The translations under genes were made by a program, and so were the position numbers. From Tagaea sp. (GTDB lineage Bacteria > Pseudomonadota > Alphaproteobacteria > CACIAM-22H2), in assembly GCA_965279525.1 (NCBI GenBank), contig CBDIIB010000005.1:448001-512000 (forward strand): a stretch of 64,000 nt of DNA. The letters run 5' to 3'. The notes beneath the pieces were generated by a model. That model made no database searches and was not told the DNA's origin. It saw only the letters and a list, made by a program, of their open reading frames with translations. Shown here piece after piece: positions 6,007 to 10,633 of this stretch. Each line of letters starts with the position of its first letter. Position 1 is the first letter of the stretch.

Positions 6007-6456
6007 ATGGCTGTCCTGACAATCAATGGGAAGACTTACGACGCCGCAGCCGATCCCGAGACGCCGCTCCTGTGGGTCCTGCGCGACACGCTCGGCCTGA
6101 CAGGCACCAAATACGGCTGCGGCATCGCGCAGTGCGGATCCTGCACCGTGCATATCGACGGCGTTCCGACACGATCGTGCTCCGTGCAGCTGGGATCCGT
6201 CGGCGACGGCAAGATCACCACGATCGAAGGCCTCGCCGCCAACGGCATGCTGCACAAGGTGCAGAAGGCCTGGCTCGACAACGACGTTCCGCAATGCGGC
6301 TACTGCCAGAGCGGCATGATCATGGCTGCCGCCGCCCTGCTCGCCGAAAAGCCCAATCCGACCGACGACGACATCGACGCGGCGATGACGAACATCTGTC
6401 GCTGCGGCACCTACCAGCAAGTGCGCGCGGCGATCCACGCCGCCGCCAAGGCCTGA
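6007..6456 (+). CDS. (2Fe-2S)-binding small subunit of a xanthine dehydrogenase-family enzyme (IorA-like)
   Basis: [46 protein letters not shown]. Confidence 0.93.
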
Positions 6457-6470
6457 GGGAGGAACGCGCC

Positions 6471-8630
6471 ATGACAGCGATCGCTTCGATGGACCGCCGC
6501 TCGTTCCTTGTCTCCGCCGCAGCCGGCGGCCTCTCGCTCGGCTTCGGCATCCCGTTCGGCAAGGCAGACGCCCAGGTTGCCGGTGCCGTGCGCGAAATCA
6601 ACGCCTGGGTCGTCATCCACCCCGACGACCGCGTCGTGATCCGCATCGCGCGCTCGGAAATGGGCCAGGGCACGCTCACGGGTCTCGCCCAGCTCGTCGC
6701 CGAGGAACTGGAATGCGACTGGTCGAAAGTATCGACCGAATTTCCCACGCCGGGCCAGAACGTCGCGCGCAACCGCGTGTGGCGCAACTTCTCGACCGGC
6801 GGCAGCCGCGGCATCCGCGAATCGCACGAATACGTGCGCCAGGGTGGTGCCGCCGCACGCATGATGCTGGTCGAGGCCGCAGCCAAGCGCTGGAACGTTC
6901 CGTCCGGCGAGTGCGCTGCCGCCAACAGCGTCATCCGGCACGCGGCCAGCAATCGGACTGTCACTTACGGTGCCGTTGCCGCAGAAGCCGCCCAGCTCCA
7001 GCCGCCCGCGACGGTCGCCCTCAAGGACATCAAGGACTGGAAGATTGCCGGCAAGGGCGTGAAGCGCCTCGACACCGCCGAGAAGCTGAACGGCAGCCTC
7101 GTCTACGGGATCGACTTGCGGCTTCCCAACATGCTGACGGCGACGATCCGCCAGTGTCCGGTGGCCGGCGGCAAGCTAAAGAGCTTCGACGCCGCGAAGG
7201 TCGAGAAGATGCCGGGCGTTCGCAAGGTCGTCGCGGTCGACGGGAACGCCGTCGCGGTCATCGCCGACAGCTACTGGCAGGCGCACAAGGCGATCGACGA
7301 ACTGCCGGTCGACTGGGATCTTGGGCCTGGCGCCAAGACGTCCAGCGCCACGATCGACGCGATGCTGGCCGAAGGCCTGACGGCCGAGAATGCTTTCATC
7401 GGCACGAAGATCGGCGATGCCAAAGTCGCACTCGCCGGGGCCGCCAAGACCGTCGAGGCCGTCTATTCGTATCCCTACCAGAACCACGCGCCGATGGAGC
7501 CGATGAACGCTACGGCGCTCTACACGGCCGATCGCTGCGAAGTCTGGGCACCGACGCAGAACGGCGAGGCGGCCCTTGCGGCGGCGGCCGAGGCCGCCGA
7601 GCTGCCGGTCGCCAAATGCGACGTGCACAAGATGATGCTGGGCGGCGGTTTCGGCCGTCGCGGCCGGTCGGACTTTGTCCGCCAGGCCGTGCTGATCGCC
7701 CGGCAGATGCCCGGCGCGCCGGTGAAGCTCGTCTGGTCGCGCGAAGAGGACATGATGCACTGCGCGTTCCATCCGGTGACGCAGTGCAAGCTGACCGGCG
7801 GGCTTGACGCCGCAGGCAATCTCACCGGCCTGCACATGCGCATCTCCGGCCAGTCGATCCTCGCCTCGTTGCTCCCTCAGAACCTGCAGAACGGCATGGA
7901 CCCGGTCGTGTTCCAGGGTCTCAACGCCGGCGGTGCCGAAGGCCAGTTCGGCTACGACATCCCGAACCTGCTGGTCGACCACGCCATGCGAAATCCGCAC
8001 GTGCTGGCCGGCTTCTGGCGCGGGGTAAATCTCAACCAGAACGCCATCTACGTCGAATGCTTCATGGACGAGCTGGCGCGCGCGGCGGGCCAGGACCCGC
8101 TGGAGTTCCGGCGCAAATACCTGAAGCCCAAGCACCGCGCGGTGCTCGAGGCGGCGGCGGCAGGGGCCGGCTACGGAAAGGCGGCCCCCGGCGTACATCA
8201 CGGCCTTGCCCAGATCATGGGGTTCGGCAGCTACGTTGCGGCGTGCGCGGAAGTCTCGGTCACCAACGGCAAGCTCAAGATCCATCGCATCGTCGCGGCG
8301 ACGGATCCGGGCGTGGTCGTCAATCCGGCCCAGATCGAGCGTCAGGTGTCCGGCTCGTTCGTCTACGGCCTGTCGGCCGCACTCCACGGCCAGTGCACGG
8401 TCAAGGACGGCGTCATCGAGCAGACGAACTTCGACACATATCCGGTGCTACGCATGGACGAGATGCCGAAAGTCGAGACGATCCTGGTTCCCTCGGGTGG
8501 CTTCTGGGGCGGCGTGGGCGAACCGACGATCGGCGTGGCGGCACCCGCGGTGCTCAACGCGATCTTCGCCGCGACCGGCAAGCGCATCCGGTCGCTGCCG
8601 GTGTCCAAGCACGACCTGAAGACCGTGTGA
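6471..8630 (+). CDS. Molybdopterin-binding large subunit, isoquinoline 1-oxidoreductase beta (IorB)-like, Tat-exported
   Basis: Tat motif DRRSFL; EMGQG, TGGS, HAPMEP, GGGFGRR, GGVGEP motifs. Confidence 0.93.
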   Translation: MTAIASMDRRSFLVSAAAGGLSLGFGIPFGKADAQVAGAVREINAWVVIHPDDRVVIRIARSEMGQGTLTGLAQLVAEELECDWSKVSTEFPTPGQNVARNRVWRNFSTGGSRGIRESHEYVRQGGAAARMMLVEAAAKRWNVPSGECAAANSVIRHAASNRTVTYGAVAAEAAQLQPPATVALKDIKDWKIAGKGVKRLDTAEKLNGSLVYGIDLRLPNMLTATIRQCPVAGGKLKSFDAAKVEKMPGVRKVVAVDGNAVAVIADSYWQAHKAIDELPVDWDLGPGAKTSSATIDAMLAEGLTAENAFIGTKIGDAKVALAGAAKTVEAVYSYPYQNHAPMEPMNATALYTADRCEVWAPTQNGEAALAAAAEAAELPVAKCDVHKMMLGGGFGRRGRSDFVRQAVLIARQMPGAPVKLVWSREEDMMHCAFHPVTQCKLTGGLDAAGNLTGLHMRISGQSILASLLPQNLQNGMDPVVFQGLNAGGAEGQFGYDIPNLLVDHAMRNPHVLAGFWRGVNLNQNAIYVECFMDELARAAGQDPLEFRRKYLKPKHRAVLEAAAAGAGYGKAAPGVHHGLAQIMGFGSYVAACAEVSVTNGKLKIHRIVAATDPGVVVNPAQIERQVSGSFVYGLSAALHGQCTVKDGVIEQTNFDTYPVLRMDEMPKVETILVPSGGFWGGVGEPTIGVAAPAVLNAIFAATGKRIRSLPVSKHDLKTV

Positions 8631-8632
8631 CG

Positions 8633-9082: not shown

Positions 9083-9534
9083 ATCCCGCCGGCATCACAC
9101 GCCGCATGCTGCTCGGCGGTGCGACGGTCCTGGCCGTCCTGCCGCTCGCATCGGCGCATGCCACGCCCGAGACGATGCGTGCCGCCATCGCCGCCGTCGC
9201 GGCCGGCCGGCCGATGCGCGAAGGCAAGGTCACGCTCGACATCCAGCCACTCGTCGACAACGGCAATACCGTGCCCATGCGCGTCAACGCCGAGAGCCGC
9301 ATGGACGGCGCCGACCACGTGCGCGCGATCCACGTCTTCAACGAGCGCAATCCGCAGCCGCACGTGCTGAGCGTTTCGTTTGGGCCATTGGCCGGGCGCG
9401 CCAGCATCGCCACGCGCATCAAGCTCGGCGACTCGCAGAAAGTCGTCGCGGTCGCCGAGATGCAGGACGGCACGCTGTGGACCGCCAGCGTTGACGTGAT
9501 CGTGACGCTCGCTGCCTGCGTCGAGGGGATCTAG
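9079..9534 (+). CDS. SoxY-related carrier protein with non-canonical arm (VTLAACVEGI)
   Basis: Tat motif TRRMLL; DNGNTVP, NPQP and TRIKL SoxY-type motifs; C-terminal Cys sits in AACVE rather than GGCGG. Confidence 0.88.
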   Translation: MNPAGITRRMLLGGATVLAVLPLASAHATPETMRAAIAAVAAGRPMREGKVTLDIQPLVDNGNTVPMRVNAESRMDGADHVRAIHVFNERNPQPHVLSVSFGPLAGRASIATRIKLGDSQKVVAVAEMQDGTLWTASVDVIVTLAACVEGI

Positions 9535-9536
9535 CA

Positions 9537-9857
9537 ATGGCGGTCCCGCTCGTCAATGCGCCGGCCCGCGTTCGCCGCGGCGAAGTCTTCGAGGTGAAGA
9601 CGCTCGTCGCCCACCCGATGGAGACTGGCTACCGTCCGGGCATGAACGGCGTGCTGATCCCGCGCGACATCGTCCAGCGCCTGCGCTGCCGTTACGACGG
9701 CGCCGACGTGCTCGATCTCGAACTGTCGCCGGCCATCGCGGCCAATCCGTTCGTGTCGTTCCACATGCGCGCCGAGCGCAGCGGCATGCTCGAGCTGGTC
9801 TGGACCGGAGACAACGGCTTCGCTGCCAGCCACCGCGTCGCCATCGCGGTCGAGTGA
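9537..9857 (+). CDS. soxZ: SoxZ-like protein
   Basis: VKTLVAHPMETG, AIAANPF motifs; no signal peptide. Confidence 0.9.
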   Translation: MAVPLVNAPARVRRGEVFEVKTLVAHPMETGYRPGMNGVLIPRDIVQRLRCRYDGADVLDLELSPAIAANPFVSFHMRAERSGMLELVWTGDNGFAASHRVAIAVE

Positions 9858-10633
9858 GAAGGTCTGTGCGGCATCTGGGGCTGTTCCTTGCTCTCGGCAC
9901 GCTTGCCGCGTCGGCGGCTGGCCAACCCGCCCCGGACACGCGACGCTCCGGCTTCGCGGACATGGGGCCTGCCCTGCAGGCGATCCAGCTCGACGATATG
10001 TCCAATCCCGCGATGCTGTGGATCGCCGAGGGCGAGCGCCTGTGGAACGCCGCCGCCGGCCGTGCGACGAAATCCTGCGCCGCCTGCCATGGTTCAGGCG
10101 AAAGCATGCGCGGGGTCGCCACGCGCTATCCGGCGTTCGACGACAGGATCGGTCACGCCGTCGATCTGGATGGCCGGATCGACCGCTGCCGCAGCCAATA
10201 CCAGCTTGCCGATCCGCCCGCGGCCGAGAGCCGGGAACGCGTGGCGCTGGCGGGTTTCGTCGCGCGGCAGTCGCGCGGGATGCCGATCTCTCCGCCGGCC
10301 GACACGCGTCTCGACGCGTTGGCGTCCGCAGGCGAAGCGCACTATCGTCGCCGCCAGGGCCAGCTCAACCTTTCATGCGCGCAATGTCACGACGAGCGCG
10401 CCGGGGGCAAGCTCGCCGGCGTGACGATCCCGCAGGCCCACCCGACCGGCTATCCGCTCTATCGTTCCGAATGGCAGGCCGTGGGCTCGCTGCAGCGCCG
10501 GCTGCGCAACTGCATGACCGGCGTGCGCGCCGAACCCTATGCGTTCGGTTCGCCGGAGTTTCTCGAACTCGAGATCTACCTGATGCGCCGGGCGGGCGGC
10601 ATGGCGTGGGAAACGCCTGCCGTCCGCCCCTGA
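9854..10633 (+). CDS. soxA: SoxA-like diheme cytochrome c
   Basis: Two CXXCH motifs (CAACH, CAQCH), YPLYR, and the active-site RRLRNCMTGVRAEP. Confidence 0.9.
   Translation: MRRSVRHLGLFLALGTLAASAAGQPAPDTRRSGFADMGPALQAIQLDDMSNPAMLWIAEGERLWNAAAGRATKSCAACHGSGESMRGVATRYPAFDDRIGHAVDLDGRIDRCRSQYQLADPPAAESRERVALAGFVARQSRGMPISPPADTRLDALASAGEAHYRRRQGQLNLSCAQCHDERAGGKLAGVTIPQAHPTGYPLYRSEWQAVGSLQRRLRNCMTGVRAEPYAFGSPEFLELEIYLMRRAGGMAWETPAVRP

Follow-up and report, generated by a model that had tools for sequence, protein, structure and literature searches.

A conserved operon joining a xanthine-oxidase-family molybdoenzyme to a SoxY-related carrier in Tagaea sp. and other Proteobacteria

Six genes at positions 6007–10633 of a 64,000-nucleotide stretch of DNA from the alphaproteobacterium Tagaea sp. 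(GenBank assembly GCA_965279525.1, contig CBDIIB010000005.1, positions 448,001–512,000; hereafter, the window) encode IorAB, a molybdenum (Mo) enzyme of the xanthine-oxidase family, together with a SoxY-related carrier (SoxY') and the proteins SoxX, SoxZ, and SoxA. There is good support for the view that the genes of this operon, iorA-iorB-soxX-soxY'-soxZ-soxA, make up a single conserved functional unit, as their linkage is kept across genera, families, and classes of bacteria. Textbook Sox sulfur oxidation relies on a fixed cast of SoxXA, SoxYZ, SoxB and, in its complete form, SoxCD. Our best guess from the encoded proteins is that the operon would be a self-contained periplasmic module for the oxidation of reduced sulfur, similar to the Sox system but with a different finishing enzyme. 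Specifically, we propose, tentatively, that IorAB may oxidize sulfur bound to the cysteine of SoxY', standing in for SoxCD and SoxB.

The first-pass annotation of the window had described six co-oriented genes with very short spacings, twin-arginine (Tat) signals on IorB and SoxY', and a SoxA that retains two haems and the cysteine of an RLRNC motif, and the open reading frames (ORFs) and their translations bear this description out. All six genes are on the plus strand. The first, iorA (6007–6456), encodes the small [2Fe-2S] subunit of a xanthine-oxidase-family enzyme (149 residues) and is separated by 14 nucleotides from iorB (6471–8630), which encodes the molybdopterin-binding large subunit (719 residues) with the Tat motif DRRSF at residues 8–12 (window positions 6492–6506). 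After a 2-nucleotide gap follows soxX (8633–9082), the gene of a monohaem c-type cytochrome with a Sec-type signal and the haem motif CLLCH at residues 56–60 (8798–8812). The next gene, soxY' (9079–9534), overlaps soxX by ATGA and encodes the carrier, which has the Tat motif TRRM at residues 7–10 (9097–9108) and the C-terminal arm AACVEGI, with the arm cysteine Cys147, at residues 145–151 (9511–9531). The gene of its partner, soxZ (9537–9857; 106 residues), begins after a gap of 2 nucleotides and overlaps by GTGA with soxA (9854–10633), whose dihaem cytochrome product has the motifs CAACH at residues 75–79 (10076–10090), CAQCH at residues 175–179 (10376–10390), and RLRNC at residues 216–220 (10499–10513).

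Ribosome-binding sites resembling AGGAG and GGGAGG are found ahead of the iorA ATG and ahead of iorB, respectively. The operon is flanked by a divergent CoA-transferase-like ORF on one side and a convergent methyl-accepting chemotaxis ORF on the other. Judging from the ORFs and family scans, it includes neither a gene for a flavin adenine dinucleotide (FAD) subunit nor any cytochrome other than SoxX and SoxA, both of which have hydrophobic, signal-like N-terminal segments. Because IorB and SoxY' carry Tat signals and IorA and SoxZ have no signal peptide, IorA is probably co-exported with IorB, and SoxZ with SoxY'. Contigs from an RNA-library run (X22), which come from a relative, are 90–95 per cent alike to pieces of iorA/iorB, iorB, and soxX/soxY' (8999–9452) and further span soxY'/soxZ/soxA (9445–9992). 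Since an RNA library can hold DNA, these contigs hint only weakly at transcription of a related operon in nature.

Comparison with curated protein family models sets SoxY' apart from canonical SoxY and places it in the AACIE-arm type, in line with the first-pass annotation, which had called the Sox set non-canonical. SoxY' scores 187.4 bits against TIGR04487 ('SoxY-related AACIE arm protein'; cut-off 172), but only 89.3 bits against the true-SoxY model TIGR04488 (cut-off 125), and it lacks the GGCGG arm. Its C-terminus reads ...VTLAACVEGI, the arms of its relatives follow the pattern AAC[ILVT][ED]xx, and residues T143, A146, and C147 are invariant across 26 relatives. A search of the ESM Atlas returned SoxY clusters only. 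The remaining Sox-like proteins pass the cut-offs of their models: SoxA with 204.8 bits against TIGR04484 (cut-off 110; Pfam SoxA-TsdA_cyt-c also matches), SoxX with 70.6 bits against TIGR04485 (cut-off 61), and SoxZ, as a borderline case, with 76.3 bits against TIGR04490 (cut-off 76; 86.9 bits against Pfam SoxZ). Together, CLLCH, CAACH, CAQCH, and RLRNC provide the haem motifs and the SoxA cysteine that characterize SoxXA of the canonical Sox system; we take the RLRNC cysteine to be the catalytic residue. Like the canonical system of the Paracoccus type, the operon therefore encodes periplasmic SoxX, SoxA, a SoxY-like protein with a Tat signal and a cysteine near its C-terminus, and SoxZ. Unlike that system, it has AACVEGI in place of GGCGG and a xanthine-oxidase-family Mo enzyme in the same operon, and SoxB and SoxCD are missing from it.

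IorA and IorB have the composition of an IorAB-type enzyme. IorA matches Pfam Fer2_2 (102.6 bits) and Fer2, and thus has the two [2Fe-2S] domains of the small subunit, with cysteine motifs at residues 38–46, 97–101, and 131–136; IorB has the MoCoBD_1 and MoCoBD_2 domains of the large subunit. IorB reaches no NCBIfam equivalog (best score 177.9 bits, cut-off 780). By sequence, its nearest solved structure is the large subunit of an aldehyde dehydrogenase (PDB 8gy3_C; full-length match, E 5e-74), with which it aligns at the motif GGGFGRR and in which GLGEP pairs with the GVGEP of IorB. The glutamate of GVGEP (E684), presumably the catalytic base, is invariant in all 37 IorB sequences compared. 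As in the 8gy3 enzyme, the [2Fe-2S] small subunit is separate and no FAD subunit is present. What distinguishes the window enzyme is that its partner genes encode Sox proteins and that it has a clade-specific cysteine, Cys356 (window positions 7536–7538), which 29 of 29 sequences of the Sox-linked clade share, whereas all eight outgroup IorBs have Val or Ala at this site. Cys383 (7617–7619) is almost as clade-specific, and both cysteines are possible sites for thiol chemistry involving the carrier. 'Ior' is used here as a label for the architecture only and does not point to isoquinoline as a substrate. In a predicted complex of IorB (residues 36–719), SoxZ, and SoxY' (residues 29–151), with SoxY' as the scored partner, a control in which IorB was swapped scored equally high; the score therefore stems from the retained SoxY'-SoxZ pair.

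The proposed linkage of iorAB to the sox genes is upheld by a survey of gene neighbourhoods at several taxonomic depths. Among 20 SoxY loci fetched from 41 related genomes, iorAB adjoins all 14 loci with a non-GGCGG arm and none of the six with a GGCG[GS] arm. A scan of named genomes (one genome per species) with a narrow SoxY' alignment yielded at least 546 SoxY' relatives, of which the best 80 were studied; seven of these are on the same contigs as loci already fetched from the relatives. These best 80 loci come from Tagaea, Reyranella, Enhydrobacter aerosaccus, Vineibacter terrae, Pseudolabrys, and other Alphaproteobacteria, and every one of them encodes an AAC[ILVT][ED] arm. iorB is located upstream in all 72 informative loci, with no counter-examples; the other eight are uninformative because their contigs end within 1.7 kb upstream of soxY', too short a distance to reach iorB. 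In a sample of 401 genomes of the class, every one of the 19 whose TIGR04487 match exceeds the cut-off also encodes an IorB of 60 per cent identity or more. A phylum-level sample added 10 loci, all with the full cluster; four are from other classes, and two of these four belong to genomes of 1.7–1.9 Mb with 46–47 per cent guanine plus cytosine (GC).

The reverse question gives a less uniform picture. We sorted the 29 class-sample genomes that have an IorB of at least 57 per cent identity by the position of the carrier: SoxY' is adjacent on the same contig in 20, the cluster is split by contig ends in three, two are unresolved, and in one (G350) both halves are situated mid-contig and are unlinked. 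In the remaining three, no AAC-arm carrier adjoins IorB; two of these (G098 and G153) have no SoxY in the genome, and in the third (G128) the lone IorB is on contig C66.

The cluster is also carried by plasmids, namely a 2.1-Mb conjugative replicon of Neorhizobium galegae (L160, CP090555.1) and a 0.54-Mb plasmid of Methylobacterium sp. NMS14P (L161, NZ_CP087107.1). In the public annotation of the plasmid copies, the carrier is named as in TIGR04487 and the Mo enzyme only generically. The Neorhizobium record lists no gene at the place of the Mo subunit, and its gene table is known to be incomplete. Cultured carriers of the cluster include Enhydrobacter aerosaccus ATCC 27094, Reyranella soli, Reyranella massiliensis, and Vineibacter terrae, which makes the function of the operon directly testable. 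No flanking gene is common to the whole family: across 83 loci, only iorA to soxA are shared. Synteny beyond the cluster is found at the level of lineages, as in the Reyranella group, where the flanks encode an NMT1-like binding protein, an Lrp/AsnC regulator, a class II aldolase, and an ABC transporter.

Outside of the Tagaea group, the cluster usually has an additional component. There, iorB and soxX are 1.4–1.7 kb apart, and the gene between them, mostly preceded by that of a small cytochrome c, specifies a flavoprotein (FccB/SoxF) that has a Tat signal and the domains FCSD_central and FCSD-flav_bind. Among the best 80 named-genome loci, fccB is present between iorB and soxX in 68 and absent in eight, and four are undetermined. 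The presence of fccB/soxF and of the small cytochrome c in most clusters, which the first-pass annotation had missed, strengthens the link to sulfide. As in FccAB/SoxEF, the flavoprotein has both flavocytochrome domains; the window operon, in contrast, lacks the gene. In the genome of Tagaea sp., an FccB-type flavoprotein and a small cytochrome c are encoded apart from the operon, on another contig (G000:C3:3931–5444; L158), and this FccB is 54 per cent identical to the in-cluster copy of Reyranella.

To place these arrangements in an evolutionary context, we reconstructed a quick maximum-likelihood tree of 41 IorB sequences, for which a careful search is unfinished. All 27 sequences from full clusters fall in one clade with a support of 100. 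This Sox-linked clade comprises 31 rows, including the IorB of G098, the unlinked copy of G350, and two tandem duplicates; the lone copy of G128 is sister to it, and the lone copy of G153 is located outside. The exceptions nested inside this clade thus seem to have arisen by secondary loss or rearrangement. More distant IorABs (37–50 per cent identity) adjoin SoxYZ variants with the arms GACAE.., GACAYM, and ..GACS and form a separate clade (support 99); some of these GAC-arm clusters lack soxX, and one has no soxA or soxX match in the 14.5 kb fetched. In the tree, IorBs from other classes branch among those of Alphaproteobacteria, as would be expected under transfer of the whole cluster. No cytochrome c genes were found downstream of Sox-less IorABs with a strict GC3 filter.

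Several variant arrangements add to this picture. A tandem second iorAB pair is situated upstream of the cluster in two metagenome-assembled genomes (L077:211–5670 and L087:917–5861), and the IorBs of these pairs are 52–69 per cent identical to that of the window. Another locus (L132, G120:C18:30000–46283; positions 2357–13691) has two tandem iorAB pairs (39 per cent identity) followed by a SoxY-like gene, soxZ, a cytochrome c gene, fccB, soxX, and soxA. In the final 15 residues of the reading frame with the SoxY-like match (TVPDELRGYVVQEGK) there is no cysteine, the true end of this carrier being unchecked.

The earlier statement that SoxB and SoxC are absent from the window can be extended to the entire assembly that holds it (4.35 Mb in 5 contigs; 97 per cent complete). 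Neither protein was found in the window or in the rest of the genome, the best matches scoring 127 bits against the SoxB model (cut-off 550) and 174 bits against the SoxC model (cut-off 420); SoxD was not searched. By tblastn, the SoxA and SoxX of the operon are the only ones in the genome. We also tallied SoxB in 30 cluster-bearing genomes, comprising 20 class-sample genomes with an adjacent cluster and 10 phylum-sample genomes. SoxB is absent from 20 of the 30 (17 of 20 in the class sample and 3 of 10 in the phylum sample) and is encoded elsewhere in the other 10 (three and seven, respectively). In the three class-sample genomes and the one phylum-sample genome for which both places are listed, the neighbour of SoxB is a separate, lower-scoring SoxY and not this cluster. 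The match to that SoxY stops before the arm, and we take the protein to be of the GGCGG type. Given that two-thirds of the genomes lack SoxB and that SoxB is apart from the cluster wherever it was placed, the module does not depend on the canonical pathway, and the two can occur together. A lead in this respect, and no more, is Bradyrhizobium diazoefficiens, in which soxY1 but not soxY2 is reported to be required for the oxidation of thiosulfate (PMC5748708); its soxY2 might be of the AACIE type.

The genome of Tagaea sp. has further loci related to these proteins. The best match to the SoxC model is a sulfite-oxidase-family molybdoenzyme with a Mo-co dimerisation domain (G000:C2:229006–230319; L159:7007–8320, minus strand), followed by a 117-residue ORF; it is possible that this enzyme is a SorAB-type sulfite dehydrogenase able to take sulfite produced by the operon. 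A true GGCGG-type SoxY (153.5–153.7 bits) and a SoxZ (124.2 bits) are encoded alone at G000:C4:211180–212038 (L004:10180–11038), next to an ArsR-family regulator and an AHSA1-like protein, the only SoxXA pair of the genome being that of the window operon.

If IorAB does act on carrier-bound sulfur, the pathway might proceed as follows. A flavocytochrome of the FccAB/SoxEF type, whose gene is part of the cluster in most lineages but is located outside of the operon in this genome, would convert sulfide to sulfane sulfur, which SoxXA would then join (or sulfide or thiosulfate instead) to Cys147 in the AACVEGI arm of SoxY'Z. IorAB, with its Mo centre and two [2Fe-2S] clusters, would take over the role of SoxCD and oxidize the sulfur on the carrier. 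The product would be released without SoxB, probably as sulfite, the electrons would exit via c-type cytochromes, and a SorA-like sulfite dehydrogenase encoded elsewhere in the genome could complete the oxidation to sulfate. What would happen chemically at the Mo centre is guesswork. In a bolder form of this proposal, which we put forward with greater reserve, IorAB would be the first xanthine-oxidase-family enzyme to act on protein-bound sulfur, the arm of SoxY'Z would enter its active site for the oxidation of sulfane to sulfite, and the cluster would represent a third Sox pathway, without SoxB or SoxCD, that has spread among Proteobacteria by whole-cluster transfer.

The conserved iorAB-sox linkage, the frequent presence of fccB, and the independence from SoxB speak for oxidation of carrier-bound sulfur by IorAB. 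So does the direct tie between enzyme and carrier: distant IorAB clades adjoin SoxYZ with other arms, and the IorB tree separates the AAC-arm clade (support of 100) from the GAC-arm clade (99). Other observations weigh against it. We know of no xanthine-oxidase-family enzyme that oxidizes sulfur, the established chemistry of the family being hydroxylation at carbon centres. Ten of the 30 cluster-bearing genomes have SoxB elsewhere. Lone IorABs of 55–63 per cent identity exist in G128 and G153, and the iorAB and sox halves are unlinked in G350. In G098, a complete, single-contig genome, iorA-iorB-soxX-soxA is intact (L127 = G098:C1:2349000–2366000, positions 5849–9913), soxY'Z and fccB are cleanly missing, and there is no SoxY anywhere. 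Because the IorB of G098 is nested in the Sox-linked clade, IorAB and SoxXA apparently persist there without the carrier. This genome therefore favours an alternative already raised by the first-pass annotation, in which the Sox cytochromes serve as electron acceptors for the Mo enzyme. In G098, as in the Reyranella lineage, the cluster is followed by genes for an Lrp/AsnC regulator and a class II aldolase.

An explanation along these lines is that IorAB acts on a soluble, non-carrier substrate (an aldehyde or an N-heterocycle), that SoxX, SoxA, and the small cytochrome c are its dedicated electron acceptors, and that SoxY'Z and FccB carry out a reaction of sulfide that is parallel or regulatory. 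We consider it unlikely, although it agrees with the close full-length match of IorB to an aldehyde dehydrogenase subunit, with the lack of an FAD subunit and of other cytochromes in the operon, and with the retention of only iorAB-soxX-soxA in G098. SoxA, with its conserved RLRNC cysteine and a score well over the cut-off, looks like a catalyst and not like a mere carrier haem. Moreover, there are IorAB-soxY'Z clusters without SoxX, one of them without a nearby match to either SoxA or SoxX, the carrier arm and the IorB clade change together, and the link to fccB is near-universal. Alternatively, the Sox-like proteins could deliver sulfur in the periplasm, with FccAB and SoxXA building a persulfide on SoxY'Z that installs or repairs the Mo=S ligand of exported IorAB, the substrate of which would be unrelated to sulfur. 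Xanthine-oxidase-family enzymes require a labile sulfido ligand, and such a role would account for the strict linkage of enzyme and carrier with no need for SoxB or SoxCD, as well as for the loss or unlinking of carriers where IorAB remains. Four to six genes would, however, be a heavy apparatus for the maintenance of a single enzyme, the sampled genomes include further Tat-exported relatives that have no Sox genes nearby, and to our knowledge no periplasmic sulfuration of this kind has been described; we regard sulfur delivery as rather improbable.

The operon could also be an organosulfur module, in which SoxXA forms a disulfide between SoxY' and a thiol, such as a mercapto-heterocycle or another small thiol compound, and IorAB hydroxylates a carbon of the tethered molecule. 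This would preserve the carbon-centred chemistry of the enzyme family as we know it, and the bulkier, acidic arm AAC[ILVT][ED]xx suggests a bound species unlike that of true SoxY. Yet most clusters include fccB, the gene of a sulfide dehydrogenase flavoprotein, and only iorA to soxA are common to the 83 loci, the surroundings showing no conserved gene for a transporter, a lyase, or any other organosulfur function; we give this explanation little credence. Least probable by far is that the sox genes are an ordinary second SoxXAYZ set, oxidizing thiosulfate with SoxB and SoxCD from elsewhere, and that iorAB is an unrelated neighbour. SoxX, SoxZ, and SoxA do score above the curated thresholds for true Sox proteins, and a third of the cluster-bearing genomes have SoxB elsewhere; but SoxB and SoxC are absent from this genome and SoxB from the other two-thirds, SoxY' fails the true-SoxY model, and iorB is adjacent in every informative locus. 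The dispensability of soxY2 in B. diazoefficiens would also count against such a set if that gene is of the AACIE type.

Among known systems, SoxCD sulfane dehydrogenase is comparable to IorAB only in the proposed role, that of a molybdoenzyme oxidizing sulfur attached to the cysteine of SoxY. IorB, of the xanthine-oxidase family, and SoxC, of the sulfite-oxidase family, are not homologous. A precedent by name for a SoxYZ-like carrier working with a non-Sox periplasmic dehydrogenase is TIGR04557 ('quinoprotein dehydrogenase-associated SoxYZ-like carrier'). Its members, however, are SoxY-SoxZ fusions with another partner enzyme, and SoxY' (54.6 bits) and SoxZ (41.3 bits) score far under its cut-off of 140. 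TIGR04487 itself, of which the window SoxY' is a member with a matching arm, has been a name only, to which the present analysis adds the constant partner IorAB and the usual partner FccB. In open papers and preprints (subscription journals and supplementary tables were outside the search), we found none that names the TIGR04487 family or links Sox genes to an IorAB-type enzyme. By term search, a paper on the SoxY gene family (PMC11237559) does not mention GGCGG, 'molybd-', xanthine, or TIGR04487. Hence, although the carrier family is already named in a database, the cluster probably marks an unstudied route of sulfur-compound oxidation.

The operon is of interest because a Sox-like carrier and cytochrome pair are permanently joined to a Mo enzyme of another superfamily across a broad, coherent group of bacteria that includes many heterotrophs of soil and fresh water. 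If the Mo enzyme acts on carrier-bound sulfur, the reaction repertoire of the xanthine-oxidase family would widen, and an overlooked route of sulfide or sulfane oxidation would exist in organisms that surveys based on the soxB marker score as non-oxidizers. Should the Sox proteins serve the Mo enzyme, as electron acceptors or as suppliers of sulfur, this would likewise be a new use of Sox parts.

Elsewhere in the window, ORFs for methyl-accepting chemotaxis proteins are located at 10649–12874 (minus strand) and 56790–59126 (plus strand); the first is convergent with the operon and ends 16 nucleotides past the soxA stop codon. A transporter set of the branched-chain amino-acid ABC type, consisting of two ATPase ORFs, a fused permease of 624 residues, and a binding protein, occupies 59123–63734 (minus strand). 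The permease gene, an ordinary membrane permease on the minus strand, accounts for a spike in AT skew at 60–62 kb.

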